This document shows positions 306-62,814 of a stretch of 64,000 nt of DNA, piece by piece. Where the stretch lies: assembly GCA_963693365.1 (NCBI GenBank), contig CAVNZM010000009.1, positions 9,800,243 through 9,864,242 on the forward strand. Reading direction: 5' to 3'. The notes below the pieces were generated by a model. That model was given only the letters and a program-made list of their open reading frames with translations, was not told the DNA's origin and did not search any database. The stretch is from Amoebidium appalachense. Taxonomy: Eukaryota; Protista; Ichthyosporea. The stretch's first letter is position 1. Every line of letters starts with the position of its first letter. A program made the translations under genes and the position numbers.

Positions 306-335
306 CATCAGCAAACTTCCCGGAAGTATTGCCAA
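306..335 (+). repeat. Left terminal inverted repeat of the Plavaka element
   Basis: 30 bp, 2 mismatches to the reverse complement of 19091-19120. Confidence 0.92.
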
Positions 336-1810
336 CGTATTTTTTGCTATTGGGGCTATTGGCGATATTGGCAATAGAACCCCTTGCCGCCAATAAGAAC
401 ACCATATTGCAATAATATTGCTTTGGTATTGTCAATGGTAATACAGTACCAATACCCCCTATTGTCGATATCCCGCTGATATGAATATATTATCCAGTAT
501 ATGTTACATCAATATCGCCAATACATTAGAGTGCCATTACATTACCATTGCATTACTATTGGGCTAGCATTATAGACGTATTGCCAATATCAATTATACC
601 CGGGCGATATTACAATAACAACCAAATAATATCAAAAATACAGATAATGATATGGATGTATTATACTGTATTTTCGCATTGTAGTTGCACTATGAACGCA
701 TTATTAATGTATTGCCAATATGTAATTCATAGAAATACAAAGATTTAAATATCAAGAAACATATAAACAATGTATTGCCAACATATGATCCAACTATAAT
801 CAATATATAAATGCGGTATCGCCGATAGGTTGTTTTAATATCGTGAGTATATTGATGACATAAACAGAGGTATGATTAATACACTCCCAACACATTACAA
901 ATAAGGAATATGTGAGTATGTTCCATATCAAGCATATATTGGCAACATACGAATGATACCACCACCATAAAGATATAAGTATTGATAATGCATTGCATAT
1001 ATATTATAAATATCGGTTTTATTTGTGGAATTTATTGACATAAATATTTTTCTGGGTAAACACGTAGGATGGGTGTTCGATATTGACATAACCATGTAGG
1101 CTTCGTTTCGTGTTTTAGCAGTTCGCGATTGGCCGCTCGCACACGGGCACCTATTAGCTAATCAAAACATCAGATTCCACATATCGCTAGACCGATTTTG
1201 ATTGGTTCGATTCAGATTCACATATCACTGGATCGATTTTCAATTGGCTCAGGTCGGTAGGCTTAGGTATATAAGCAAGACAGTTTTCAGCAGATCAGCA
1301 AGCTACAAACACATCTTCTGTGTTGAGCACCTACAGCCCTTACGGCTATACATTTTCTTTTCACCCACCCACCTACACCCACACTCACCCCCATTGATCC
1401 ACACATGCGTGCTGTTTTTTCACGGGGCGAAGACTTCCCCCGTTTTTTGGGCACAAGGACCTCACGGATCAATAAATTGATGACTGGGGGCTTGCCGTGG
1501 TTTACAACCATTGCAGGTTCACTTTCGTCCAAGGGGATGTCCCCCTAGAGGCAACACACGTCCCGGAGTAGTTTTCATAGAACACTATATTATTCAAATA
1601 CATTGCCAATAAATTGATAATGGGAACGAATGCATGCAAAGTACAGTATAAGTGCGCTTATAACATGAAAGGCATATCGGACGAACATTGCCAATGTATT
1701 AATAATAACTTTATTGACACCTCAATCACATGCTCAATATATTGGCAATATGCACACGGTACGGTAAGCACAGCCCCATGATCATTGTCAATGTATTGCC
1801 AATGTATTGC
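326..1810. repeat. Left subterminal array of TATTG(C/G)CAATA-like motifs, interrupted by the 1015-1581 repeat
   Basis: Many copies of tattgccaat/attggcaata and variants in AT-rich sequence, in both orientations. Confidence 0.8.
1015..1581 (+). mobile_element. Dispersed ~570-bp LTR-like repeat, copy 1
   Basis: Aligns along its length with 11700-12268. Several ATTGG (CCAAT) boxes, TATATAA at 1268-1274, AATAAA at ~1471, structured 3' end, terminates ...agtagttttcataga. Confidence 0.8.
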
Positions 1811-2062
1811 ACATGTCGTCATCCATACGTGTTCCGTATGGTCACTTTATTAACTTCGGTTGGATATACCACATTATATTGAGGACCACACCTGGTGGCC
1901 CTCCCCCCTCCCCCCCTCCCCCCCCCGGCCCAACCCCCTCCCCCCCCCCCCTCCCCCCCCCGGCCCTCCCCCCCCCCTCCCCCCCCCCCCCCCCCCCCGG
2001 GCCCCACCCCCTTTTCCCACAGGCTCAACCGGCCATGTATACACCGCCCCCCCCCCCCCCCC

Positions 2063-2944
2063 CTAAAAAAACCCAAGTCCACTACCCCCCCCCCCCCACC
2101 CAAAATCAAAGAAAAAAAAACTTTTAGGGCTCGTCAATGTTGCAGGCGGCATGGGACTTGTCGATGTTGCAGGCATGGCCGTCTCAGTGCTCGTGCTCGG
2201 TATTGGCGGCGAGGGGAGACTTAGGAGCGGGGGGGGCTCTGGAGCGTGGGGGGACTTTTGGGCGTTGATCTCTGAGTCTTGTTGCTCAGCCTCGGCCTCC
2301 TTGAGCCTTGCCTCCTCCTGGGCCTTGAAAGTCTTCCAGTTGTTGATGGCCTGAGGACACACGTATTAGAATGAATGTAACAAGAGTTCTGCAGACAAAG
2401 ACATGTGCCAAGTGGCAAGCTGCAAATGGAGCATAATTTAACTGAAATAATAATATGCAAACGTACTCCCCATCTTCTGGCAAGAAAGCTATAAAATGTG
2501 GAAGTATCATGTTCATGTTCAAGGGGTTGGGAGGAGGGAGGGGGGGGGGGGGGGGTTCCCTACCGCTTCAAAAGACCTCGGGTTCGCCAGCCCGTGCCAG
2601 TCCTTGGGGATGCCTCCCTCCTTGGAGAAGGGTGACCAGACAGGCAAGCCATTTTCAGCTTGTGCCGCAGTGCGGTCGCTCAGACAGGCCTCGATGATGT
2701 AGATGATGAAGCGCACAAATTGGGGCGAGTCCTTCAGCACGTCCTGCATCATTGAGAAATCAGCAGTTAGCTATGATCATGTGGATTGGGCTTGGGTTAA
2801 TCTATGTACATCAAGGACCATTAACTTAGTAAAAGGAAAATGAACTCATAGACAGCAAACGCAATTGAAACAAACGAAAGAACTAGAAAAGAAAGTGATT
2901 CCATACACACATGCCCAAAAGGGCTATTATGGGAAGGGATAAGG

Positions 2945-3018
<74 letters not shown>

Positions 3019-3987
3019 GGACTTACGTCAATGGTCTCGAAGGTGATGTCCATGTCGTTGGCGCGGTTTCGCACTTCATCCAAGGCCAATAGCAGGTCGA
3101 GGAGCGCTGGGTTCCCAAAAGGGTGGCCGGTCTCTGGGTCGCGGAAAGCCCTGCTGCCACCTGACATGCCTGGGGCAAGGTCGATGATATCCATGAGGCT
3201 CTGCCAGAACGCCCACCGGGACGTGAACTCCCCGGGGACATCCCTGTCCAAGATCTGCAAGAAGAGATGTGCATGTCAGTGATGAGTGCTGACGAAGGAA
3301 TGTACAAACAGATTCAGAATAACTTGTCAACGGTAAAAGGTGTTCAATGCCTAACAAACAGCTACTACTAGCATAGTATCATGGGCACATTCATTTTTGT
3401 CCTACACTCTGACTATAAAACTCTACATTGCAGGCAGTGTTTGGGGTTTGAACACACAAGCAACCAGGGTTTAGGAAGCTTACCCTGACGTTTCCTGGAA
3501 GCACACTGAACATGGGCATTTGCCGCCGGACAGACTTGACGACGTTGTGCTTGGCCTGTGACATGGCCCTGCTGAACCTGCCATGTTTGGGTGGAGGGTG
3601 TTAATATCGTTATATAAAAAAGTCAACAAGATAACCAACCATTTTAATGTAAACCTATGGATAGTTGTCCCACACTACTTGCAAGAAGTAAAGTATGTCG
3701 ACGACAATATCACTCACTAGAAACATATGAACAATACAATGCCAATATCATTTACATATCGAAGACATGTTGGCAATACTATTTCGATACAATGCCACAG
3801 CTATTACGAATATATGAAACATATGAGGGACACGTAAACTTAATCAAAAGTACAACAAGTGTTCACTAACATATTGCCAATGTATCAGAATGATACGATG
3901 CCGTATATCAACCCTATGAGCACCTCATTATGATGGATAGAACACTTGGGGATGATGTGGTGTGCTTGTGTGTGTGTGCTTGCGCTT

Positions 3988-4021
<34 letters not shown>

Positions 4022-6817
4022 TTACTTACTTGGACCTGAGCTTGAAGTCTTCATCGGTCCGCTTCAGCTTGCCGAAGTACACAACGGCTTCTTGAATCTC
4101 CTCGTCGGAAACCTTCCCCCAGAAGGGCTTTCCTGTGGGGGGGTCTTTCTTGAGCGTCATAGCGATGGCCTTGATAAGGCGCTGGGGATCATTCTGGATG
4201 TTGGCGCCAAACTTCATGAGCACCGTGGTGTACACAGTGTCGGTCATGGGGTGCTTCCGAAGAAGCCTTGCCTGCATTGGATGGAATAAAGAGAGGGTTG
4301 GAAAGAAGGTCTTTTTTATCTCATGGAACAAAGATTTAATGAAGACATGCACATGACTAATTGATTCGTTAACTGACGTGAACCATAGAATAGGGTTTTT
4401 ATGGGTTTGGATTTGATACACAAGTGCGGTTGAACATTCTTAATTACTTCAAACGTTGTCTTCAAGGTTTGGCCGTGTCATTGGGAGGGGGAGGGGGGGG
4501 GGGGGGACGATGTCTTCAAGGTTTGGCGGTGTCATTGGGAGGGGGGGAAGGGGGGGGGGGGGGGGGGGGGCTGGATGGGGAGGATGGGGGGCCGGGGATG
4601 CGTTACCACAGTGGTGTTCAGCATCAACTCATCATCCGCAGTAGCCTCATTGGAGGACACATCAGACATCTTCATCTTCTTGACCTTGGGCCTCTTGGGG
4701 GGGTCGTCGTCCTGGGAGGGAGCGGCCCGCTTCAGGACACCCGTCGTAGCGAAATTCGCGATGCCTGCCCTTTTCGATGGTGTCTCTGTGCCAAAAGCAA
4801 TGTCCAGAGCATCACGCTCGGTCAACTCCGGCACTTGCGCGCGCAGGAGGGCAGCAAACGCGATGTCGAGTTTGGAGTAGTTCATCGGGGCCGAGACGGG
4901 GGCGGGGGTCAACGGCATGGGTTGCTTGGAGCTGTCCTTGCTGCTGGAGCGGTCCTTGCTGCCGGATTTATCTGTGTAGGAATGGTTGGGCACTCAACAT
5001 CCCGACCGAAGCCACAAGAGTATTACGAGGTCACTACCAACTTATTCTCAATACATGCTAAGTACAACACCAATACTGTAACGATATCACGATGGTATTG
5101 CCATTATGTACGTAGCCTACGACAATTGCATAAAGCATAACAAATGTATATTAGCAATGTATTGCGCATGTTTGTTCGATATTCACCGTCAACGAGGAAC
5201 ACATTGAAAATGAGATGCAGTTGGTTTGTGTACAATGGTAGGTGTTTGGACCGTGTGTGTGTTTCTGTGGTTGTGTGTGTGTGCGCGTGTGTGTGTGTGG
5301 TGGGTGGTGGGGAGGGGGGGGGGGGGGGGGGGGGGGGGCAAAAAAAGACAAGACCTGGCAGCAAGGGCCAAGACAAAGACTGGTAGGCTCTCACTAAAAG
5401 TGTGGGGTTAGGGTCCCAGTATGAGCGGCAGCGGCAGCGCAATTCTAGGGGTGTTGCTGCTAGCCAACCCTCAGAGAGAATGTTGACAGCCTGTGCAAAG
5501 TTTGGGCCCAACTGGAACCCAAAGTGAAGCGCAAACGGCGTGGTCATGACAAGGTCACCAGGGTACTGCACCAGCACCTCAGGGACCAGACCCTCCTTCA
5601 CCCATTCCATGATTGCTTCGGCGGTAGGAATGAACGTCTTGTGTTGTATGGGGTTTTTGCACTCAACACCTAAGTCTTCCTGCAGTTTGGCTACGATCGT
5701 TCGATACACCGAGGGTGGGTAACAAAACCAGAATTTTGGGTAGCCAGCAACATGTAGTGAACAAGACGGCACCCCGTTGTCCTCCGAGTGAATTTCAAAC
5801 GCAGAACCTCCCTTCTTCGCAGGTGATAAGTGCACGTAACTAAACGGCCGATTGATACCAGGCAAGTCCTGAAGATAATGAGGCCGACCAAGGGGTGTTG
5901 CATTGACCAGTTGTGTCAGATCAGGAATGCTATGCAGGCGTCTTTTCGGCGGGGGGAGGTCAACGTGTGCAGCATATACACCCCCACCGTTGAGTGCCTT
6001 TTCGTACAGACTTACGACTTCACGGACGGTGGTTTGAGGACTAAGTGGGGGTGCATGTGCCCTAGCAGCTTCGATGCTAGCCTGTATGTCTATAGTCGTG
6101 CAAGGTGTGCGAATGACCTGCCTCCAATGATTGTTGGTGGGTTGCAATGTAAATACGTGGGCATGCTTGCGTAGAGCAGTGGGTGTGTACTGAGACAAGG
6201 CATCTTCAAAGGGTATTGGGGGGGCGAACTGTCGAAGCACAACACCACCAACGTCTATAGCCTCCGCAGCATGGAGCGTGGCTAGTGCTAGCTTTAGGTC
6301 GAGCATGTGTGCAGTAGAAAAAAACAAAATGCAAAACAGAAGACTGCGGTACGGTAGCTAGGTGGGTGTACTATTTATGAAAGCATGCAGGAGGACGCTA
6401 CTGCCAAAGATAACGCAACGAAAAAAAGGTGATGTGCACAGTGTGGTTGCAAGAACAGAATGGGGAGTTGCACGGGGAACAGTCCGGCTATGTACCTGCA
6501 AGGATAGCATGCATATACAGGCGAGTGGGCGGGTTGTGCAGGCTGAGAGGGCGGGATATGGAGGGCCGAGCCATACCTTTTGTTTTCCCAGTTACGAGGT
6601 CCATAGCAGGGACCTTGTTGGCCTGGTTGATGACCTGGGCCAGGAAAGGGTTCGCTTTGCCATCGTCCGAGGCGGACTCGTCGGAGTCGGCTCGGACCTT
6701 CTTCTTGCTCTTGGACCCCTTGCTGGTGCGCACGGGGGTTTCGGGAGGTGGGGTGACCTCCTTGTCCTGTCGATCCTTCTGCTTCTTGGCTGCTTTGTCT
6801 TTGTTCGACTTTGCCAT
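2063..6817 (-). CDS. KDM4-like JmjC histone demethylase with a long uncharacterised C-terminal region (transposon cargo, multi-exon)
   Basis: Proposed exons (minus): 6817-6496, ~6320-5355 (5' boundary uncertain), 4971-4607, 4271-4030, 3577-3484, 3254-3027, 2743-2564, 2350-~2063; splice phases are compatible from the JmjC exon onward. Motifs: LPGINRPFSY, FEIHSED (HxE), AGYPKFW, CKNPIQHK, QYPGDLVMTTPFALHFGFQLGPNFAQAVN, RCRC. The C/H/CxC zinc site matches the KDM4 subfamily. Basic N-terminus resembles an NLS. Confidence 0.85.
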
Positions 6818-6959
6818 GGTGGTGGTACAGTACAGCGAACGGCAAAACAGGCCAGACAGAGCAATCTAATACAAACAATATATCGCAAATACAAGCAATA
6901 CAACGGCCAACATACTGAGGGTATGCACAGTATATTGAAAACATGTTTTCGGTGCGATG

Positions 6960-7112
6960 GGCGCGCCAAAACCCTGGAATTTAGGTGGATTTGACGTGGA
7001 ACCAATCGTGTGCAATGACATTGTGGGTTTGGCCAACCGGTTCCGGCTCTGGACATAAAATAAGTCATAGGCCAATCACGATCGCCTCAATAAAGGCATG
7101 CAAATTCCAATC
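6960..7112 (-). promoter_or_regulatory. Putative promoter of the JmjC gene: E2F-type site plus CCAAT boxes
   Basis: TTTGGCGC on the minus strand at 6970-6963; CCAAT at ~7002, ~7073, ~7107; about 150 bp upstream of ATG 6817. Confidence 0.35.
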
Positions 7113-8348
7113 CGGCTTACGCCTCTCTCCTCAAAAGCCGCACAATATCACCCCATCCAAAAACATCAAAAACACCTGCAACACCATAGTACGCCTTCAT
7201 ATGGAAAACTACTTTTTTAAAAAAACTAAACCTTTTTAATTTACATTGTCATTCACAATACGAATCACTTACTACAGCATGTACGCGACCACGTTTGACT
7301 TCAAAGGTTTGCATGATTTGCTTCGCTCAATCACGTTGAGCATCCCGGGTGGCACGTGTCGATGCTGCTTGGCGGTCATTGAGGTGGTATTGTTTGTAGT
7401 GAACATCTAGCATGTATTTTACACCCATTTAATGTTTATTTTCGTGTTTGTTTGTTTTTTATTTTGGTACTGGATATGTTGGTTTTGCGTAGTAGTGAAA
7501 CTTCCAAGGTGCTTGTATTTTTTCTGACGCCATATTCGCGTCAATAAACGTTGAGGGCATGCAAATTCCTCGTAGGTTTCATCCCTATGTCATGCAAAGG
7601 TCAGTTGCATAATCAAGCCTCCGGATACGACAACAAACCAACACATATGAAAAATAGACCATTTAATTACCTCTTATAAACAATCTTTGTTACATTCAAA
7701 GCCTAAAACAATATGACGTGTTCAAGGTATACATTGTCATGTGTACGCAGCTCACTTGGCCTTCAGTGGGTGAGCATTTTGCTTCGCTCCCATGAGCAAA
7801 TAGCCAATCATCGCAGTTCCATTGTGCATGTATGCGGCGGCGCGCATCATATGCGGCACGATCAGCCTAATATGTATATTAGTACGGCCAAATATACATG
7901 TACATCCAGTGCATGGCTTGTAGACGTAAAGTGCACGTAATATGTATATTGTTTAGATATAAATATCGTGTATATGTATGAATATATATACAACAATAAT
8001 TAATACAGGTACAGACGTAATAAAGACGGTCAGCGGATGCGTGAACCCTTGCCTGGGCCGGGGGGGGGGGGGGGGGGGGGGGCCACCTCCCCCCCCCCCC
8101 CCCCCCCCCCCCCTTTATCCGCGAAATATTGAGCATATATGCAGGCGATATCCACGCGATATCCGTCATTCCCCTGCATACGGGTATCCTTGTCGTCAAT
8201 AAGCGAATATACTTTCTCAATATGCTTACGATACGGGCGGTAGATTGACCATAGGTGTGCTTATGTGATTCTATCATTGTTCTGTATCACACGTGTAATG
8301 TTTTAAGCATCACATTACTTTCACTCTAGGAAATTTGTATATGGCGTC

Positions 8349-17597
<9,249 letters not shown>

Positions 17598-18049
17598 TGT
17601 ATGTCATTGCCTGTATGGTCCACAGGGAATACATTCCCAAGAGTTGAATTCTTTATTCCGTATGTATGCCGTACTTGCCCGTATTTCACGGTTGGGGGGG
17701 GGGGGGGGGGGGGTTGTCATTACTTTCCTGTATTATCCTTTATGCTACTTCAAGTTTTATACCCTACCGCTTACACAGGATGTAGGCTGGTGAAAGGTTT
17801 AATGGTAGGACGTTCGGTGACGTTTGTACCACGGACCACGGGAACATCTTCCCCAGGAACATTATTCAAAACAAAGAACTTTTATATTTTGAGGTGCTAA
17901 AAACGTGAGGTACTGTTATGGCCGTTGCCCTTCTCAATCTTGGTACGGAAATGCACCCATATTATACTGCAAATGTATTGTATATGACGTGTGTATATCG
18001 TACAGGTACTGGTAGTATATTGATAGTACCTCCTACGTAATGATTTGTT

Positions 18050-19100
18050 CGCATTCGAACATACTGGCAGTATATACTGAGACTATAACCAATATATGGT
18101 GTCCTTAGCTGTGTCCGTATTGGTGACAGTATTATAGATGTATTCGCGACATTGCCAATACCACTTGTGCCTTAGATATTCGCAATAGGATAAAAGTTTT
18201 CTTGCTATATCATGTTTATGTCCTACTAATATGGATGTGATATGGGTAGGATATGATCTACATAATATCAGTATATGTCCACCCTAATACCACGGTATTA
18301 GCAATGTACTGCGCATACAAGGACTACACTCCGAATATGTTTGTTGAACATGTGTTGGCAATACATTCACAATATTGCAACTACATAGGTAAAGTGACCT
18401 GTTCTTTCATCCCCAATATTGTACCAATATATTGGCAATAAAATACACGCCCCATATTTTCGGTTGCTTTTACCTATTGATAATAGGTGCATAATAGTCT
18501 TGATATTGTGACGGATACATTGGCCATACATTTGGACCGAATTGAGATCCTATTATAAGCATATCACAACCCTATAACCAATAGCGACGATATGTTTGTA
18601 TCGGCCATATGGGACATATGTGTTGGGTATATTGCCAATAACCCAAAATGGTCAGGAATAATACATTCATAATATATTGGCAATAGTCTTGCCACGTTGG
18701 ACAATACCATAATTTGACACAAAATTATCCTACATTTTATATATTCATAACTTATTGACAATACTCCGCAAGCAATAGTATAATACCGAATAAATACATT
18801 GACAATATCGAAATTGTATTGTTAATAGGCACACGTACACGCGTTTTGAGATATTGCCAGTACATTACTCATACGGTATATAGTTATTGGTGGTAGACCC
18901 GGCATGGTATGACAATAATATCAAAATATGTTGCCGATATTACGTCAATATTACAGTTCTATTACGCTTCTATAGCGTCTCTACCACAGAAAATCTCTAC
19001 TCGCAATACATTGGCAATGGATAATTGATATTACTTCAGTATTAATCTGGTATTGTTACGATATTGGCAATAGATAATAGCCTCACAATATTGGCAATAC
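18050..19100. repeat. Right subterminal array of TATTG(C/G)CAATA-like motifs
   Basis: Same motif family as the left end (e.g. ~18150, ~18430, ~18630, ~18675, ~19010, ~19062, ~19089). Confidence 0.8.
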
Positions 19101-19120
19101 CGCCGGGAAGTTTGCTGATG
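19091..19120 (-). repeat. Right terminal inverted repeat of the Plavaka element
   Basis: ttggcaataccgccgggaagtttgctgatg, the inverse of 306-335. Confidence 0.92.
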
Positions 19121-20652
19121 TGGTTTGGGCGTCCGGGGTTATGTCCGCGCGCAGAAGAGACACCGCCATGTGGTACAGCTTGGTGCCGACAGCCGAGCCG
19201 GTGGCCAGAATTTGATCGCCGTAGCACAACTTAACGCCGCCGCGGGTGTCAAAGCGGGGTAAAACGCCGTTGGTAGATGCCGTGAACACACTGATGAGAG
19301 TGTCGGGGATGGAGGGCACGTAGAGTACATCCGTCAGCTGATGCACCGCAGTAACGCCGTCGATGGTGCTGGAAAAGAACACGTCGCCCACCCCAAGCAC
19401 TGCACATGCACCCTTGTCGGCTACTTGGACCGTGGAGTAAGGCGCCGCACGCATGTTGACGAACACATCGGGCCGGGGGCACACATGGTCAGTGGCTCCA
19501 GAGTCGAGGAGCACCTTGTTGGTGCCATAGTCGTTGCTAGACATGAGGAAAGCCCGGGGAGCGGCAGCCCCCCCCTTGCACTGTGCCGTAGTGTGGGTAG
19601 TAGAGGCAGGGTGGTTGATGCAGGACCCAGGCGGGAGGGGACCACCCTTAGGTTTGCGGCCGTTGGCACGGTTGCCCCCCTTGCACATGGCGGTAGTGTG
19701 ACTGGTAGACAGTGGGTGGTTGACGCAGGAACCCTTGGGGTAGGTGCTGGCACGGTTGTTGCCAGAGTTGCTGTGTTGCCGTTGGGGCACTGAGACTTGA
19801 TGTGGCCTGGTTTGCCGCAGCCGTGGCAGATGACAGGTTGAGGAGCCCGTGTGGTGAAGGCGGCCGGCCCGGAGCTGGTAGTCACACGTGCACGTGGGTG
19901 GCTGGTCTCATATGCCCGTAGCTGTTGGAGGAGGCCCATCACGGTAGGCTTGGGTGTCATCTTGTAGGCAATGACAGGCATTTCGTAGTAAGGCACCTTG
20001 CCGAGGTCGTTGGTGAGCTTGGTCAGCACTTGAGCATCACCAATTTGTGTGCCGTAATCGGCCAGGCGCCGCACGTAGCCGCGGAGCTTCATGGCGTATT
20101 TCGTCGCGGTGTCCGTAGGTTCAGGCGTAGAATTCATGTACAGCCCGATAAGGTCGTACTGATTGGCCTCAGATTGCTCCAGGTAGTGGGCAGATAGGGC
20201 CGACCATATCTCCGCAGGTGTGGTGGTGCGTGTTAACTCTAGGATACAACGCACGTCAACCGAGAGTGCTTGCCACAGGTAGGAACGGGCAGTGTCGACC
20301 TGTTCACGGGTAGCCGGGTGCCACAGTGCTCCGTACTGGGCGCGATGGTGTAGAGAAGACCAGCACCAGAAAGCTGGACATACATGGTTTCGGCCCATGT
20401 GTGGTAGTCCGTGCCTGAATCATTATCAATGCCAGTGAAGAGAGGGATGTCGACCTTGAACTTGATGGAATCATTACGTGAGGGGCCCATAACCCTGTTG
20501 GACATCGTGTTCATAGAAGCTAGTTCTAGTGCACGTTGTTCCTTCTGTAAGTCAGAAATGATTGCATCTTGTGAGGCCAACCTCTGCTCCAGTAGTTGGA
20601 CTAGTTGCTGCAACTGTAAGTTGTCAGACATAGTGTCGTGTATGATGGGCAA
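19121..20652 (-). pseudogene. Ty1/Copia-derived gag-zinc knuckle-aspartyl protease ORF, two frameshifts, interrupted by the Plavaka element
   Basis: IPLFTG..DYHTWAETM (gag N-terminus), PAEIWSALSAHY, CHGCGKPGHIKSQC (CCHC), LLDSGATDHVC (protease), VLYVPSIPDTLISV, TKLYHM; spread over three reading frames. Confidence 0.88.
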
Positions 20653-20742
20653 CTAGTCTATGTGTTTTGTGCACTGAAAACGACAGTAGAAAAGTGTAAA
20701 TCAAACGTTCTGCTTCCCATGTTTGTGACATGGGAGGCACTG

Positions 20743-20753
20743 CTTTATATAGT
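20743..20753 (-). promoter_or_regulatory. TATA box upstream of the gag-like ORF
   Basis: actatataaag on the minus strand, ~90 bp upstream of ATG 20652. Confidence 0.45.
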
Positions 20754-21233
20754 CGTTGGCCACCTCATGGTGGCCTCGTGTGCACCCTGGTGGTGGGCCA
20801 TGTACAGCATGGCCGAAAAGAGAGCACAATGAAAACAAGTCGTTAAAGACATAAAAGTTAACTGTGCACGTTGAGTGGCTAGTTAACTTGCACTAAAGCA
20901 CACAAATAAACGTGTTTAACACACCAATTGCAGTTAAACGTAAGTCTTACTTCACACAACTAAAAATATTCTGAGAATATCCGGGAAAAAAAAAAAGCAC
21001 ACTACCACTCTAAGAATAGAATCCTGTGGCAAATATAGACATGACATCATCTGAACCGGGAATATTAATTAATGAGCACAATTAGCACGTTGCTAGTGAA
21101 GCTCGTCATTGGTACAGTTTTGGCTCAAACATATAACTACCATATATGAATATGACCGTAAACAAAAGCTCTATGCACTCGAGTGAGTGTTGAAACAATT
21201 ATTCAATTGCTCAGAAGCTTTCTCTAACAGACA

Positions 21234-22157
21234 TTGCTAGCCGGGAGTACCAGTGTACTCCAACAGGTTCGTCCTGGGTCCCCCGCCTTCCACTCGGCCT
21301 CGAGCAGCCCTGTGGACACCGATGCCCCCCTCACCACCGGTCCTATTCCTGGCTTCCATGCCCCTGTCCCGGCCTCCACCACCTCCCCGGCCACCACCCC
21401 CCTCAAGGACCCCCCCAAACCCAACCTTCGTCGGTCTGCACGTCTCACCAAGCCTCCAACGGCACTGGTCAGCATCACAGCACCGACCATCAACATTGAC
21501 CAACTCCCCAAGGGCATTCAAAAGCTTTGCAACGGTCCCAACGGTGATGCCGTCATAGCTGCCCTCACCTCCGAGTACCAAGCCTTTATCGCCAAGGATG
21601 TCTTTACCGTCGTTGATCCCCCCCCTGATGCCAACATCATCAAGTTCAAGTGGATTGTGACTGAGAAAGTCCTCAACTCAGCCGGTGACACCAAGATCAA
21701 GGCTCGTGGTGTTGCAAAGGGCTTCACTCAAGTCTACGGTGTTGACTACGGTGACACCTCTTCCCCCGTGGTGATGTCCTTCTCCGTCAGTGCCCTCCTT
21801 GCCATCGGTGTGGACGGCAACCATGAGATTCATCAACTCGACGTCTCAACAGCCTTCCTCAACAGTCCTCTTCAAGAAGACATCTACATTGAGCCACTAC
21901 CTGGCTTCATCACCCCCGGCAACGAGCACAAGGTCTGGAAACTCAAGAAGGCACTCTACGGCCTCAAGCAAGCATCACTGGCCTGGTATGAGTACTTCGA
22001 CAAGGTCCTCCTTGCTCACGGTCTTGAACGTCTCCGTTCAGATCCATGTGTCTACATCAAGACCTTCCCCAACGGTGACATCATCCTCACTGGCAACTAC
22101 TAGTATGTGGACGACGTCATCATCATCTGCACGGCCAACTCCTCCCACACCAAGGAT
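21234..22157 (+). pseudogene. Ty1/Copia reverse transcriptase fragment
   Basis: NIIKFKWIV, KIKARGVAKGFTQVYGVDYGDTSSPV, IHQLDVSTAFLNSPLQEDIY, KLKKALYGLKQASLAW, DPCVY, then a stop immediately before YVDDVII; truncated at ~22157. Confidence 0.93.
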
Positions 22158-22435: not shown

Positions 22436-23002
22436 AAACCCCCTCTTCAAAAAACAGAGTTTTTTCCCGTATAAATGACCCGGTGGGGTCGAAACTTTGC
22501 AAGAGCGAAGTAAACATATATAGTTTTCAAAGCCCCGCGGCTGTGTATAGTTTGTATATGGGCTTTGCGGCGCAGCGAGGGCGTGCTGGCACACAAAGTT
22601 GGATATCGACAACCCATAGAATGATCAATGCCTGCAATCGACTGATTGATGTAAGTGTGCTGCCTTTATGATATGTTACCTCATAATGAGCTTCTGAACA
22701 GCGTTTCATCTATTGAGTAAAGATGAAGGTCGACCAGTTTCAATGCTTTACACCCCTCGAAGACTGAAAACCATTGGTTGTTACACAAAGGAAAACCATA
22801 TATGGTGTTTAGACGTAGCCTTTTTTGGCTCTTGTAAACAAAGCAACGGCACCGTGGCCCCTTGAAAGAGCTGCACGTAGATCATCTTCCCATACCCGTG
22901 ATTGAATTGCACCGTTATATTGTCACTTCTCCTTGATATATACCAGTAGTTGGTGTCTCTTACAATGCACACAAAGAATGGACGGGGGCATGGAACTTGG
23001 TG

Positions 23003-24243
23003 ATGGCAGTGGTGCGGGGGTTCGAAGCAGGGACACTTGACTCGGATTTCTTTGACAATATTTTTTCCGACGATAGCACACAGAGTGATACGGAAGACAG
23101 TGAGGCTACAGAGAATACCGCTCTCTCAGGGAAATGGCGTATTTTTGACTCCAAGCAAGTAGACATAACACTCAAAGCAGACGATATTGAAAACAGGCTC
23201 CTAGACACGTTCAGGAAGGAAATCACAGAGATACGAAACCGTGTGAAAGCCCACGTTTCAGGAAACGCAACCATTAGCCACGCCCTCAACCTTTTCTTTT
23301 CACCACTCATTCTCCAAACACTTCTTGAACATATGAATGTTGGACTGCGTGCAAGCAAGAAGAGGACTGCTTCAATATACGAGCTGCACGGTTTCTTGAA
23401 AGTGATATGCTATTTGTCATTCTACCGTGTGTCCCCCTCCGTGTTCTATGACAGCACACTGAATCACGCATTCCCAGATGCACGCACGTACCTGCCCCAC
23501 AACCGGTTCAACGAATTGCTGGGCGCGCTGTCAAGCACCCCCCCCACACAACATGATGGTGAGACCGGGCGCACATGGAATTTGCAGTTCCGCCAAACCA
23601 ACATCCGTCTTCTTGAATTCGAGCAACTGGCATCACAGCGCATGGCGGAAATGTGCTTTGTGCCGAACGTTTCCGTGCTCATTGAAGATGATGACCATCT
23701 GCGGCTTAGGTCAAATGTTGTTGAAGAAACGGATTTCGTACGTGTTAACAACCCAATCAAGGCATACGGGCCCGTAAACCACCTTCTCGGATCTTTGTTG
23801 ACTGGGTGCCCTATATCAGCACATGTGGGTCAGCGTGCACAATCAGTGGACGACATTTTCGGTGTGCTGTGGTCTCGGGTGACCCCAAAGTTTCCGAATA
23901 CGACCGGTTTTCGGAACTCTTTCGGAGTTGATAGGGGTTACAACTCGAGGGAGCTTACAAATTCGGCACTTAGCATGGGCCTCCAACTCCATGGGACCCA
24001 CAAACGTGGACCCAACTTTCCGTTCACCTTTGGAGTCCCACCGGAGAAGGTGAAGGGCAACGTTCAACTTGTTAGCACTGTCGGTGCTAAGGCAGCATAC
24101 TGGGCGGAGAGGAAGGCGGAGGGTATGGTGCCCCCCCCCCCCCTCCCCCCCCCCCCCCCCCCTCTCCCTCCCCGGGGGTCCCCATGCCCGCTCTCCCCCT
24201 CCCCCCCTCCCCCTCCCCCCTCGCCCCCGCCTCTCGCCTTCGC

Positions 24244-24320
<77 letters not shown>

Positions 24321-24447
24321 CTGGCACACAACACACAGACACACACAACACATAGACACACACAACACATAGACACAAAAACACAGACACACGAACAAAC
24401 AGGCACACGTACACACACACATACACACATACACACACACACACACG

Positions 24448-24490
<43 letters not shown>

Positions 24491-25198
24491 GCACACATAC
24501 AGAGACATACACACACACGCACGCATGCCTACACACACTGACAGATACACGCAGCGGACAAACACAGACATGCATATTCACACACACCATGCAGCACACA
24601 TACACAGGCACATACACACACACGTACACACACATGCACGAGCACGCACACACTCACACACGCACACACGCACACGCGCACACACACACAAACACTCACA
24701 CACACGCACACACACACACGTGCACGCACTCACGCGCACATGCGCCCACACACACACACACGAGCATGCACACGCGCACGCGCACACGCACACGCACACG
24801 CACACGCACATGCACACACACACACACGAGGCACGCATGCACACACGTGCAGATGCACTAACTCAATCATGTACATGCATCATTTGTAGAGTACTCTGGC
24901 AGGGATTTTCCACAGTTCTTCAATTTGTGCCCTTCAAGCTTTTGAAAGTTTTATTTACATTTCTTTTTGATTACTGACATAAAATGCACAGGTGTACGTG
25001 GGGGACCGGAGGTGAAACTAACTGCGCTTGCGTATCGTGGGGGGTTTGGTTCTGTGGGTCTACTACAAACCTGCGATCCGGCAGCTGGCAAGGGGATGTG
25101 GACATACAGGGTTGCAAACAAGAGGTGTGTCTTACATGCTTTATATTTCACCGTGTTTATTTGTGTGCATGTGTTTTGGATGTGTGTGTGCCTTTCTT

Positions 25199-25233
<35 letters not shown>

Positions 25234-25477
25234 GGGGGGGGGGGAGGGGGGGGGGATTAGGCTTGCTTTTTTTTTTGGGGGGGGGGGGGGAGGGGGGGGG
25301 GGGGGAAGGGGGAGGAGGGGGGGGGGGGATAGGCTTGCGCTGTTCGTGTGGGTGTGTGTATGAATGCATCTGAACGGCACTGTGTCAGTTGTGTTTGTGT
25401 GTGGAGAGTGAGTATTTGTGCTGTGCTTTGTACTATGGCTGCCTCGTGTATGTTGAGGGAGTGAGTGTGTGTGTGTG

Positions 25478-25525
<48 letters not shown>

Positions 25526-28327
25526 GGATGGAAGAGGGGGGGGGGGGTAGGAAGGTATGTTTTTCGAGTGGGGGGGGGGGGGAGGGGGAGGGGGTGCCAA
25601 GGAGGGTTCGGGAGAAGGGGGTTGTGTGCCCATATAGGTGTGCGCGCTGTGTGCGGGCAACGAATTTGTGCTGAATGCGCATACATATTGTCGATGCCCA
25701 TGCAAAGTACACGTAGAAAATGATTATGAACCCAAGATCTAATATTTCATACAGGGAGAAGCTGGACCTCGTGGTCACCTCCTCAATGCCCACCTGGCTG
25801 TGTATGGAGGGCATCTTGTGGCCCAGGGACGGCAACGATCAGCAGCCTCAGACCGACGCGGCACCTACCACCGGTGCTGAGATCCCGTCACAACCCTCCT
25901 CTCCTGCGTCAGTGCCCACCCCCTCCCCCGCTGGGCCAAAGGGGAGATGAGCAGGCAGCACAACGAGTGGTTACTCTTACCACAGGCCAGGCATCCCCCG
26001 AATGGTTTGCCTTCCGTCAGTTTATGATTACGTCCACTGGTGCTGCAGAGGTGCTGCGCCAACTGCGGGCGGAGGATGTCCTCGATGATGCGCATGTCGA
26101 TGTTCTCCGCAACAAGATCGGCTTCACCATACCCAGCGCACGGGATGCAGGGGTCGACGACGTGGAGGTTGCAGCCCGATCCTACAGCGAAGAGGAGCTC
26201 AGCAAATTAAAGGTGCCAGATCTTAAGAGCCTGGCATCCAAATGCGGGCTATCTTCGGCGGGCAAGAAGGCAGATTTGCTTCAGCGGCTCACGGAACATT
26301 TTGCCAGCAGTGTCTCGCAGGACAATGCCGGCCCTCGCCCACCGCCACCCCCCCCACTGCCTTCTGACCAAGTGCCCCGTTGGCAGTTTGCGTCTGCACT
26401 TCCGCGCGCAGACACACGAATGGGTCAGCCACCCCACGTGCAGCCACCTCTCACTGCGGAAGGGCACCAATTTGGTCCACCCACTAATCCTGCTGCACCT
26501 CATATGGGAGTGACTGGTGGCCCTTTTGGTGTACCTCAGGGGTATCACCGGACCTATGTGCCCATGCCCCAACCCGGCTTTGCCCTGCCCACCCAGTATG
26601 CTAATTACCAGCCGTCGGTGCATGCGCGCGACAACCGGCCACAGGTACCACCGGCTGAGCCTGTGCCTACACACCAGCCACCCGAGGCACCCTCACAACC
26701 GGCACAGCACCAAGTCGGCAGCTCTGCGCGCGGTAGTGTGAGCGAATCGCCGGCAGTGGCAGCACAATCACGTGCCCGTGCAGTTGATGTTGCTCTGCTG
26801 CGTGCGTGGTTCCTAGAAGTGCAGCGCACAGACGGCATGGCAAGTGGGTCCCGCAACGAAGCTAATGTGCGCCGTGCGCTTCCATTGTTTTTGGAGGACC
26901 ACAGTCAGTGGAGGGTGGATGGTCCCATATGTGAGGCTGGCCTTGTGTGCGTTCGTGAGAAGCCGTATATGGGTGCGTCTGTGGATGGTACCTTGCGTTT
27001 GTTGGACACGTCTGACAATACAGCACACGGCGCAATTCTGGAGATCAAAACAATGACGTCACCCACAACCACCCGAGAAGCAACTGTGCGTTCAATCACA
27101 CACGGCCGGTCTGTGGAATGTGAATTCGGGGATGACACCTGCCGTATCATGGTCCACAGCGCATCCTATCGGTGCCAACTACTGCATCACGCCGCAGTGT
27201 ATGGAGTCAACCGTGCCGTTTTTGCAGTGGGGGCAACCGACACAATCCTATACGCTGTGGTCGTCAAGTTCCCCCAGCGGGTGTTGGACGACTACTGCTC
27301 TGTGCTTGCCATGATCGCGCAACGACACCTGCGGTGGGTGTATGGGAACAACGAACCCCCCTGCTTCACACCGGCGGAGCTGAAGGGGCTCTCAGCAGTC
27401 GACAACGACACAGTTGTGAGTAGTCTGCACCTGTGGCGAGCCCTGCACAATCTTCGCGTCAAACACGGGGGGGCCCTACCAACTGCTGCCGCCATCTTGC
27501 CAACGGCAGTGGGCTGGTGGAACTCCACCAAAGGTGCTGTGGACATAATATCGCGGTACCTCGCCAATGTCAAGCTGGACATCAAAGGATTGCCCCCCGC
27601 TGGGGCAATTTACCTGCGAACGATTCAGCTCCTTTTGCTTTGTTCATTTCAATGCCACCGTATTATGGCGTTGGGAGACCGCTTGCAAGAGGTGCAATCG
27701 TATGTCCAGGGTCGTGACATGCTGAACCACGAGAGTTCATTTCGAGTGTTTGTTGCACGCGCGCCAGTGGAATGGCAATTGCCCCCGCACGTGTCGCAAT
27801 TAACGGCGCAGCTTCTCGCGGAGTCCTCGCCGAGCGGTGGTCCTGCACCTCCCCTACGCCACTCCCCCCGGTTTCCACGCGTAGCCGCGGCCGCCCCACC
27901 CGAACCACATACACCCCAACGCCGCCAGTCACCGCGGCTTGCCAAACGCAGCCGGTCTGTCTTTCAGCAAAGCGACACTGATCTGGAGCAGCCAAGCAAA
28001 TTTCCGCGCTTGACTAGGCAAATCCGGCAGGGGTATTGGGGTACGGGTGAGGGCAGGCAGTTTCGGCTGAACAAGACCAAACCCCACGTCATCGTGCAAA
28101 ATGAGGACCGAGGCAATTGCGCATTATGCGCTTACTTCAAGAAGGTGGCGCCTGGCAAAAGGTCACGCATAGGTGGCTCGTCACAAGCCAGTTGTGAGGC
28201 ATGCAACGTACGTTTGTGCTCCAGGCGCAAGTCCAGTAATCCAAACGCCAAATCCTGCTTCGATATATGGCACACGAACAAGGATATCAAAACACCTGAA
28301 TACTGGGCAGATTACGAGCCTCCGTAG
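23003..28327 (+). CDS. piggyBac-like transposase with an inserted YqaJ/lambda-exonuclease domain and SAP domain
   Basis: Exons ~23003-24122, 24992-~25123, 25755-28327 (one probable frameshift near 25940; start codon uncertain). Asp motifs [32 protein letters not shown]; [11 protein letters not shown]. Insert: [48 protein letters not shown] (SAP), [38 protein letters not shown]-terminus [19 protein letters not shown]. Confidence 0.85.
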
Positions 28328-31227: not shown

Positions 31228-31546
31228 TAGGTATATAAGCACGACAGTTTTCAGCAGATCAGCAAGCTACAAACACATCTTCTGTGTTTAGCATCCACAG
31301 CCTTACAGCTATATATTCCTTTTTCATCCACCCACCTACACCCACACTCAACCCCCATTGATCCACACATACGTGCTGTTTTTTCATGGGGCGAAGACTT
31401 CCCCCGTTTTTTGGGCACATGGACCTCACGGATCAATAAATTGATGACTGGGGGCTTGCCGTGGTTTACAACCATTGCAGGTTCACTTTCGTCCAAGGGG
31501 ATGTCCCCCTAGAGGCAACACACGTCCCGGAGTAGTTTTTCATAGA
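31228..31546 (+). mobile_element. Dispersed LTR-like repeat, copy 3 (5'-truncated near the TATA box)
   Basis: Near-identical to the 3' ~320 bp of copies 1 and 2, with the same 3' end. Confidence 0.8.
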
Positions 31547-57222: not shown

Positions 57223-58398
57223 TCAAAAGAAAGAAACCAACTCATCATTCCCCATACGATACAACATGCTCAACTTCGAAGACCGAACACGGCCCCCCGC
57301 CATGACATCATCAAACACCGCAGTTACCAAATCAGGCAATAGCTCCATAGCGGGAAAATTCGCTAGCCACTGTTTGATTGGTCCGTTTTCAGGAATGTGC
57401 ACCAGGAAAATAGGAACCCCCCCTCTCCGAGCCGCCTGTATCATTTTCAGATTTGGGCACACGCTGCTCACCAATAAGCTCAGGTCAACACCATCCGTTT
57501 TTTTGTGCGAATTTTCCAATTCCTGAACGACATTCGGATTCGGGGACCTTCTATGCGCCTTGCATTGCACGTTGACTATAAGCGTTTTCCCGCATGGAAG
57601 CGTCCAGTCTCCCTTTAAGTCCACCCCACCATCCCCGGCGCCACCACAATGCTCAAGTTTAAACCCGAGGGGGTTTAACACATCCAAACAATGAAATTCG
57701 TAATCCCTCCCAATCTCCACTTTTGTGCGTGTTGTTTCGGGAACCGGCAATTTTTTGGGCGGCTTGTCACCTGTCGGTTGTTTTTGACGAGAAGACCTGT
57801 AATTCACATGAGCGGGCGTTATTACAAATGTCAAAGAAAAAAGTTGGGGTGAAAGGGGTAACTGAAGCATAGCAAGTGCCTTCCTAAAACATGTGGCAGT
57901 AACACAGAAACATAGGGGGGTATAGTAGAGGAGGGGGAAGGCAGCGCGAGAGAGGAAGGAAGAGAGAGAGGGGAAAGGAGAGAGAGAGGGGGGGAGGGGG
58001 GGGGGGGGGGGGGAGAGGGGGCAGACAGAAAACGAGAGAGAGGAAGAAGTCGTCCGATAGTGAGGCAGTGGGGAGCGTAGGGGGCGAGGGTAGAGGCGGG
58101 GACGGAGAGGGAGAGAGATGGGTAGGAGAAGAGGAGAGGGAGAGGGAGAGAGAAAAGGGGGGGGATGGGAGGGAAGGGGAGAGGGGGCGGCATTGTGATT
58201 GTGAAAGAGAGAGGGAGAGGGAGAAAGAGAGAGAGAGGGGGTGAGTGATGGAGGGGGAGAGAGGGAGCGAGAGGGAGGGGGGGGAGAGAGAGTGGGGGAG
58301 AGTGAGGGAGAGGATAGAGAGAGTGTGTGACGGAGAGCGAGTGTGAACATGTTGGGCATAGGGGAGAGGAGACGTGGGAGAAGAGGGTGACTGAGCAT
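57223..58398 (-). CDS. RRG7: RRG7/DUF2034-like restriction-endonuclease-fold (Mrr-like PD-(D/E)XK) protein, probably mitochondrial; 5' exon structure uncertain
   Basis: Main exon ~57796-57223: GRDYEFHCLDVL..LEHCGGAGDGGVDLKGDWTLP..VNVQCKA..PNVVQELE..LLVS. Candidate start MLSHPLLPRLLSP resembles a presequence; the intervening CT-rich tract is probably intron. Confidence 0.72.
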   Translation of the reverse strand: MLSHPLLPRLLSPMPNMFTLALRHTLSLSSPSLSPTLSPPPPSRSLSPPPSLTPSLSLSPSPSLFHNHNAAPSPLPSHPPPFLSPSPSPLLLPISLPLRPRLYPRPLRSPLPHYRTTSSSLSFSVCPLSPPPPPLPPSLSPFPSLSSFLSRAAFPLLYYTPLCFCVTATCFRKALAMLQLPLSPQLFSLTFVITPAHVNYRSSRQKQPTGDKPPKKLPVPETTRTKVEIGRDYEFHCLDVLNPLGFKLEHCGGAGDGGVDLKGDWTLPCGKTLIVNVQCKAHRRSPNPNVVQELENSHKKTDGVDLSLLVSSVCPNLKMIQAARRGGVPIFLVHIPENGPIKQWLANFPAMELLPDLVTAVFDDVMAGGRVRSSKLSMLYRMGNDELVSFF

Positions 58399-59388
58399 GG
58401 GTTTCTGCGCAATTTTGTACTTGCGCGGACATGCGCGTAGTGAACGTGAAAAAAGGAGGCAGAAGAAGTAAAGTGGACAACATGTCTTGTCAAACCCGCG
58501 ACGTTAAAACTATGCGTGAACACACAGCGCTGACAAGTCGATGATGAAACAAAGCGGATGCGGAAGAACTTACGTCAATTTTCCGTTGCCTGGTGCAGTA
58601 GCCAAGAGTCTCAACGGTGCGCCGTGTGCACAGAAGCACCTCCACAGCGGACGTGAAAGCATGTTGCGCAGTAAAGACATGGTGGGGTGTTCCAGAAGTT
58701 TCAGAATTATTTTGTGCTAAGTCGTCGAAAGACTGCCAAACCATGCCGCTTAGAACCCGCATACAGATTTCAACTCTGACTGTCTCTATGTATTATCCTA
58801 CTTCAAGCTCAAAAAAGAGAGCGTGTGACAGCTCCCTAGCGAAAATGTAACTGTTACAACCCAGCTGTACATGTGAGAGTGATGCTTCGACTTCGTAAGG
58901 CTTGTTCGCCTGTGTGGTACCTGTGTGACCGTTGAGGTGCAGTTGTCACCCTCGATGTTCGTGATCTGGGGAGAATCTACCGCGAGATAGCCATATATGG
59001 TAAGTGGCTCACCTCTGCACCAATCGGAGCGCTGCTGCTTCCGCATGGCGCGCACGCGCACGTTCGAACTAATATGGAGGCTTAGAAGTTCACTCAAAAA
59101 GAGAATAAACCTCAGTAGCTCAAGGTGTTGCCGTATTGGTTGAGATAGTGGCCAGGCACATAGGCCTCCATACGTCCCACAGCCACCGTGCTAGAGTGAA
59201 ATAGCATATAGCACCACACCATGCCATCGCAGGGCATCCTCATATGAATATCTCCAGTTTCCCTAGATACATCTCGACCCAGCTATCCTCTAAAACGTTA
59301 GATCCCCCCGGGTCTTCCCTTGGGGAGAAAAAATTACCCTCTCCATCACCAAGTTCACCCTTCCGCCGGGCAGGTGTTTTGTGCCGCC

Positions 59389-62814
<3,426 letters not shown>

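Follow-up and report, generated by a model that had tools for sequence, protein, structure and literature searches.

Counter-silencing by transposons is known in forms that have no described enzyme of their own (VANC), that borrow host DNA demethylases (TnpA), or that act on DNA (TET/JBP). VANC binds a 9-base motif clustered in the non-coding parts of its element (PMC5735166, available text). Fungal DNA transposons of the PlavakaB type, which are defined by CATCA..TGATG termini and a 2-3 bp target duplication, carry a TET/JBP dioxygenase proposed to undo silencing (Kojima 2025, PMC12730594, available text). According to the available text of a preprint (bioRxiv 10.1101/2025.02.11.637652), the red alga Bostrychia has giant Plavaka elements (17.4-19.1 kb) with the genes PAG1-3; PAG2 combines a SET domain with an N6-methyladenine (6mA) methylase, and PAG3, located beside inverted-repeat arrays, combines a putative ParB DNA-binding domain with a 2-oxoglutarate oxygenase, its proposed role being to modify the element that encodes it. 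In Amoebidium, the available text of Sarre 2024 (PMC11244446) reports giant-virus insertions with divergent KDM4 paralogues that lack reader domains and are proposed to counter silencing by trimethylation of histone H3 lysine 9 (H3K9me3), and a separate class of Plavaka-flanked repeats described with tyrosine recombinases. Here, we analyze a 64,000-nucleotide stretch of Amoebidium appalachense DNA (contig CAVNZM010000009.1, positions 9,800,243 to 9,864,242; hereafter, the window) containing a PlavakaB transposon whose predicted accessory gene (positions 2063-6817 of the window, minus strand) includes a KDM4-like JmjC catalytic core.

The host element (306-19120; 18,815 bp) is a genuine, complete PlavakaB cut-and-paste transposon inserted in a copia-type pol fragment. 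The left terminal inverted repeat (TIR; 306-335, plus strand) begins with CATCA and is identical at 28 of 30 positions to the right TIR (19091-19120, minus strand), which terminates with TGATG. The dinucleotide TG, found on the outer side of each end (at 304-305 on the left), is the 2-bp target duplication, and the flanking pol frame runs on across the insertion site (PF22936 on the right flank). Two plus-strand exons matched the Plavaka transposase family PF18759 (E 4.4e-20 and 7.9e-8), both past the curated cut-off. The transposase gene (8349-17597, plus strand) comprises approximately nine exons in divergent orientation relative to the accessory gene; reading by eye places CHLC and HVGVH in its exons 5 and 7. 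Its frame switches twice, near 14181-14187 and near 17230-17260; the first switch could be a sequencing error, because it lies inside a G run. A first-pass annotation of the accessory gene, based on the sequence only, had described it as transposon-borne and had likened its C-terminal region to the accessory DNA-binding protein of CACTA elements. The first point is borne out by the termini, the target duplication and the transposase match, and the element is CACTA-related, Plavaka being placed in the CMCT group (Kojima 2025, PMC12730594, available text).

In comparison to the TET/JBP-bearing PlavakaB elements, as the available text of PMC12730594 describes them, the window element has in common the termini, the 2-bp target duplication, the transposase family and an Fe(II)/2-oxoglutarate dioxygenase as cargo. 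The cargo differs in being a JmjC protein of the histone-lysine type nested in an accessory gene, whereas theirs is an oxidase of 5-methylcytosine in DNA, and JmjC has 0 mentions in the main text of that study. The Bostrychia elements belong to the same size class, but the available text of the preprint does not call PAG3 a KDM4 or JmjC protein (0 mentions), and no SET or 6mA-methylase domain as in PAG2 was detected in the window element. A word-based homologue search with a transposase exon retained 0 of 157 candidates, a weak negative, and IMG/VR contained no transposase relative. The 30 IMG/VR matches to a 16-base piece of the TIR came without transposase or JmjC and were judged to be due to chance. 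Rfam returned nothing at the gathering score for window positions 1-32000.

The minus-strand frame 6357-5104 contains a JmjC domain (Pfam PF02373, E 4e-13). Within it, positions 5355-6306 form a single uninterrupted frame with its own ATG at 6306, encoding a KDM4-like catalytic core made of the region at the JmjN position and JmjC. Counting residues from this ATG, the iron triad is kept as H173 (5790), E175 (5784) and H261 (5526), the 2-oxoglutarate lysine as K191 in YPKFW (5736), and a Cys-His-Cys-x-Cys site, which we take to be the KDM4-type zinc site, as C216 (5661), H222 (5643), C291 (5436) and C293 (5430). The iron ligands, the lysine and the zinc site listed in the first-pass annotation were thus all located in this frame. 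In the KDM4 motif YGAD, whose Asp holds the histone tail, this Asp is replaced by His. In an alignment of the window core with 149 of 150 relatives (P0001 was omitted as a tandem-repeat model), the majority residue was kept at the equivalents of KDM4A Y132 (Y111), Y177 (Y157), H188, E190, K206 (K191), K241 (K223), H276 and N290 (N275), and at the four Cys/His positions. The 2-oxoglutarate and methyl-lysine-orienting roles of the KDM4A residues are described in passages of PMC13632499 and PMC8162366, and these passages also give Ala at position 288 as the KDM4D state; the window core has Ala at this position, as do 119 of the 149 relatives.

Two of the three 2-oxoglutarate residues are kept (the Tyr132 and Lys206 equivalents). 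The third, Asn198, is changed, with Ser183 (5760), in SCSLHV, occupying its position in the alignments. The annotation had noted that the Asn of the SINYLH motif was replaced and had suggested that the substrate or activity might differ. The replacement is real, but the special meaning does not hold up: this position is Asn in 133 and Ser in 14 of the 149 relatives, Ser being present also in the nearest one, and because of this recurrence the alignment identifies Ser as a tolerated variant, not as the sign of a new activity.

The closest solved sequences were yeast Rph1 (E 4e-12) and the human KDM4s, before KDM5. An AlphaFold model of the core, obtained with a 20-sequence alignment (predicted local distance difference test [pLDDT] score of 68, low at the N-terminus), aligned with KDM4A over 318 to 346 columns (best E 2.5e-8; template modeling score 0.52-0.60; 15-19% structural identity to KDM4), indicating that the JmjC block corresponds to the whole KDM4 catalytic core. 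Pfam detected no JmjN in the core, though the fold alignment covers nearly all of the KDM4A core, and detected no PHD or Tudor domain in any exon, in agreement with the absence of readers reported in the annotation. The window core shares with KDM4/JMJD2 and Rph1 the core fold, the iron triad, the zinc site and the residues of the methyl-lysine pocket, and differs from them by the Asn198-to-Ser substitution, the lack of PHD and Tudor domains, the lack of a Pfam JmjN match, and a long branch. We conclude that the JmjC block is a KDM4-type core and likely an active histone lysine demethylase.

The nearest relative of the core, P0002 (from Logan), displays 30% identity over 323 columns, and retention of the catalytic residues despite this distance implies long selection. 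In a FastTree phylogeny of 150 rows, the core joined P0002 (support 96) on long branches outside the slow-evolving canonical KDM4 cluster; the tree is unrooted, has no KDM5/6 outgroup, and carries the tool's warning that long-branch joins are possibly false. The phylogeny called for by the annotation thus gave a pairing and a position relative to canonical KDM4, within the limits of such a tree. The tree neighbours of the core are reader-less, mostly metagenomic proteins, and a Pfam scan of 110 of the 150 relatives revealed two with an Ulp1 protease domain and none with a transposase or DUF6532 match. Divergent reader-less KDM4-like proteins are numerous (P0024, P0102, P0006, P0008, P0010, P0018, P0004 and P0054); they include the two Ulp1 protease fusions and several proteins from thrips and an ostracod. 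In P0002, too, the N-terminus is basic, a Pro-rich part and then a Met precede the core, and the protein stops shortly past the same helix; its gene may be laid out like that in the window. Homology between exon 1 of the accessory gene and the basic N-terminus of P0002 was rejected (score of 32 versus a shuffle mean of 32.7). The word-based search with the JmjC core retained 0 of 4467 candidates, again a weak negative, and IMG/VR contained no relative of the core or of its tree neighbours P0067 and P0063. The sole metagenome locus recovered (L001, 1 of 203 candidates) encodes a multi-exon JmjC protein and was set aside as closer, by eye, to P0018/P0019 than to the window core.

Upstream of the core, the accessory gene has a predicted exon 1 (6577-6817, minus strand), which encodes a basic, low-complexity segment of 80 codons and ends in phase 1. 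Downstream, six exons with GT-AG borders form one open frame up to a stop at 2063, beginning with exon 3 (4607-4971, minus strand), most of which is low-complexity linker and which includes the basic stretch KRPKVKK. The reading of 2063-6817 as a single protein is a predicted model. Because the end of exon 1 and the start of exon 3 are both in phase 1, exon 1 also joins exon 3 (at 4971) directly and in frame when JmjC is skipped. JmjC is accordingly a phase-1/1 cassette in intron 1 that is includable or skippable in frame, and the predicted products contain 856 residues (exon 1 plus JmjC), 782 residues (own ATG plus exons 3-8) or 545 residues (JmjC skipped). The G+C content at third codon positions (GC3) is 0.75-0.79 in exons 1 and 3-7 (321/427 codons; 0.75 in exon 1) versus 0.52 in JmjC (154/302; p=2e-11). 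Given this difference in composition, it is likely that the accessory gene came first and received the JmjC block afterwards. A nested element with ends of its own was rejected, no repeats of at least 9 bases being found at the borders of the cassette.

The JmjC frame has no stop past the domain and continues into poly-C and CA repeats over approximately 80 codons. A candidate donor at 5355 is in phase 1, as required for joining to exon 3, and is followed by a C run 16 nt downstream; such a run is found at 6 to 15 nt from 10 of the 14 other predicted donors. Likeness to P0002 reaches Trp314, which lies beyond an alternative donor at 5395 and just before 5355. With a matrix built from 12 to 14 predicted sites only, donor 5355 scored 2.5, a weak value (2.1 to 9.9 for the others), and the phase-1 acceptor at 6287, in frame from exon 1, scored -5.2, the lowest value in comparison to 12 others (-3.3 to 8.6). 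An alternative phase-1 acceptor at 6203 scored 6.6 and would lose approximately 35 N-terminal residues. The poor score of 6287 and the cost of 6203 lead us to favour, from predicted sites, a start at the ATG of JmjC itself and a 3' fusion to exons 3-8. Splicing of JmjC onward to these exons appears plausible, and the case for a splice from exon 1 to JmjC appears weak. A 479-nt contig from run X1 (RNA status guessed) aligns with 4605-4971, which covers exon 3 and two further bases; these 367 nt contain 9 differences, and of the 8 listed, 4 are synonymous. For a related copy, this contig backs the boundaries of exon 3; it lends no support to the fusion. Among the listed pieces of three runs of the same species (type guessed), none spans JmjC or joins exons, which is evidence neither way.

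The C-terminal region was searched as single exons. Exon 4 (4030-4271) is predicted to form a small helical bundle and is the candidate DNA-binding part, exon 5 (3484-3577) is basic, exons 6 (3027-3254) and 7 (2564-2743) are together acidic, and exon 8 (2063-2350) encodes a short charged stretch followed by a low-complexity Pro/Ser/Thr tail up to the stop, all on the minus strand. The isoelectric points are 10.4 for exons 4-5 and 4.5 for exons 6-7. A single-sequence model of exon 4 (4271-4030; pLDDT of 62) is all-helical. Of the six in-phase, largely helical exons announced by the annotation, the open frame to 2063 was recovered, and helicity was modelled for exon 4 only. The structure comparison that it had proposed, run on exon 4, gave helices but no Foldseek match at E<=0.001 in PDB or BFVD. 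Among 48,161 chains, the best rows for the exon 4 model included the Myb domain of PHR2 (Z 5.9; root mean square deviation of 2.7 over 61 aligned residues), followed by ARR1 (Z 5.0; 2.4 over 57), ISWI (Z 4.9) and LUX (Z 4.7). A Myb/SANT-like fold of exon 4 is on this model a weak hint, a lead and not evidence for DNA binding. The word-based search with exon 4 retained 0 of 31 candidates, also a weak negative; Pfam gave no significant match on single C-terminal exons, and Atlas gave no usable match for exons 6 and 7. Exons 5-8 may resemble the fungal domain DUF6532 (PF20149), with no Pfam match on single exons at E<=1; in the literature searched, this domain is named only in a list alongside Plavaka and KDZ.

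The motif TATTG(C/G)CAATA is a palindrome, specific to the element and clustered in its non-coding parts. At <=1 mismatch, the window contains 25 matches versus 1.13 expected, and all 25 lie within the element, as the annotation had held in calling the motif the element's own repeat; at <=2 mismatches, 54 lie within the element and 5 outside. The left subterminal cluster (327-947) comprises 7 motifs at <=1 mismatch and 11 at <=2, and the right one (18062-19099) comprises 10 and 23, respectively. Local shuffles of the AT-rich ends gave 0.12 on the left and 0.07 on the right for the 7 and 10 observed, and 0 of 200 shuffles reached either value. Small clusters are present in introns of the accessory gene (3737-3882 and 5043-5159), further clusters are located at 1601-1804 and 13790-13883, and none is found in the JmjC exon or in the intron that precedes it. 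The element resembles Spm with TnpA and VANDAL with VANC in having an accessory gene and, in its ends and introns, densely clustered copies of a short motif of its own. For those two, no element-borne eraser enzyme is described in the available text of bioRxiv 10.64898/2026.08.24.746577 and PMC5735166. No sequence likeness of the window element to TnpA or VANC was detected.

The transposon itself, its conserved catalytic residues, the deviating composition of the cassette and its phase-1/1 placement, and the clustering of the motif are established. Our leading explanation, which we hold at about even odds, is that a captured KDM4-type core in intron 1 of the accessory gene, likely active and likely fused, keeps the element unsilenced. 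JmjC would be made from its own ATG (782-residue fusion) or from exon 1 (856 residues) and spliced at 5355 onto exons 3-8, and skipping of JmjC would give the 545-residue accessory protein. The basic helical part encoded by exons 4-5, or else the transposase, would bind the TATTG(C/G)CAATA clusters in the way that TnpA and VANC recognize their own motifs. The tethered Fe(II)/2-oxoglutarate enzyme would thereby gather at the end and intron clusters and strip methyl groups from H3K9 (or H3K36), keeping open a divergent promoter located between 6817 and 8349. This model rests on the anatomy of the element and on analogy with VANC and Spm TnpA. In its boldest form, the element would encode a natural sequence-targeted histone eraser, in which a captured KDM4 core is a skippable exon on a DNA-binding accessory protein and splicing toggles between an end-binding factor and an H3K9 demethylase directed to its own family; we advance this version tentatively and consider it rather unlikely to be correct.

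Several observations weigh against the proposal. The scores of donor 5355 and acceptor 6287 are poor, and the flanks of the X1 contig match, by eye, neither the introns of the window nor exon 1, the JmjC end or exon 4. Exons 3-8 gave no match in 151 JmjC relatives (best E 0.37). The Myb/GARP/SANT-like rows obtained with exon 4 are mixed with unrelated rows, all below the tool's Z range of 8-13. The Asn198-to-Ser and YGAD Asp-to-His changes affect the core, and the two frame switches of the transposase imply that this copy of the element may be decaying. Finally, Arabidopsis Spm TnpA recruits host DNA glycosylases while H3K9 methylation stays (bioRxiv 10.64898/2026.08.24.746577, available text); since TnpA activates Spm with this mark in place, anti-silencing does not depend on a histone eraser.

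The alternative that survives best, although we judge it unlikely, is that JmjC is a separate gene nested in intron 1 with its own promoter and ATG, in which case the 545-residue accessory protein would act alone in a TnpA-like manner and the demethylase would be untethered or a non-covalent partner. Such an arrangement fits the in-frame junction of exons 1 and 3, which have the same codon bias, the poor in-frame acceptor of JmjC, a TATA-like CATAAATA observed by eye approximately 70 nt upstream of the JmjC ATG, and the presence of a second foreign open reading frame (ORF; PLD-like) also nested in an intron, that of the transposase. It fits less well with a JmjC frame that has no stop of its own before the poly-C and CA repeats and with a phase-matched donor, then poly-C, directly past the last conserved helix, both of which are in line with the fusion that we prefer.

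The enzyme might also be active on a substrate other than histone H3K9/K36, for example a different histone lysine, a silencing protein of the host or the transposase, modified by hydroxylation or demethylation. The long branch outside the slow-evolving KDM4 cluster, the changes at Asn198 and at the YGAD Asp, the lack of reader domains, and the 15-19% structural identity to KDM4 would accommodate this explanation. We nevertheless consider it improbable, as the KDM4-type zinc site is retained in full, together with the trimethyl-lysine-orienting residues (equivalents of Y177, K241 and N290), and Ala at 288 is the KDM4D state. More improbable still is a Pack-type passenger, i.e., a recently captured host KDM4-like paralogue with no role for the element, which would account for the foreign composition of JmjC, the single copy seen, the weak splice sites and the transposase frame switches but is at odds with a 317-codon core free of introns and stops in an intron-rich genome, with every ligand being intact in a core far from canonical KDM4, and with the repeated carriage of chromatin enzymes by Plavaka elements.

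Returning to the preferred reading, a captured and likely fused eraser, the KDM4-like proteins of Amoebidium giant-virus insertions are similar in being reader-less, divergent and located on parasitic DNA, activity being a proposal in both cases. Theirs are described in the available text of PMC11244446 as virus-borne, multi-exon and composed of JmjC only, whereas that of the window is on a cut-and-paste transposon, has an intron-free core and is perhaps joined to a protein of the transposon. Chromatin-modifying cargo of Plavaka elements and KDM4-like proteins in giant-virus insertions are known, and the novelty is a KDM4-like core as cargo, in the service of a known strategy. A DNA transposon bearing JmjC or KDM4 was not found described in the literature searched, with most subscription papers and Repbase Reports being outside its coverage. 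The presence of an intact KDM4 core on a cut-and-paste element would carry the arms race forward to direct erasure of histone marks and, together with the giant-virus proteins, suggests convergence of unrelated parasites on the same enzyme. The locus would offer a compact testable system made up of a single enzyme, a single candidate targeting domain and an 11-bp motif, and illustrates a route of cargo acquisition by insertion of a symmetric-phase cassette into a pre-existing accessory gene.

Other features were observed in the window. The PLD/Nuc-Zucchini-like ORF (12540-13097, minus strand) lies in transposase intron 3 and abuts the next exon, and its 5' end lacks an in-frame start codon; it matches PLDc_2 (E 2.4e-10), displays weak likeness to Nuc and Zucchini, and has an intact HxKxxxxD motif. 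Intron 2 of the transposase contains a 190-bp tandem array (9693-10961; 6.7 copies, 95% matches). A 570-bp repeat is present twice in the element (1011-1581 and 11696-12268; 93% identical) and in part outside (31228-31546; 98%); it has a TATA-like box and no Rfam match and is probably a small nested element. Beyond the right TIR, copia-type pieces (19121-22103) comprise gag and a pol beta-barrel on the minus strand and a reverse transcriptase on the plus strand. A PiggyBac-like element (22937-28327, plus strand) has a weak DDE_Tnp_1_7 match; its 865-codon frame contains a SAP domain and a C-terminal zinc ribbon and shows a weak match to a YqaJ-like nuclease. An RRG7/Mrr-like protein (57223-58503, minus strand) and a class I tRNA synthetase exon (61464-61700, plus strand) likely belong to host genes.

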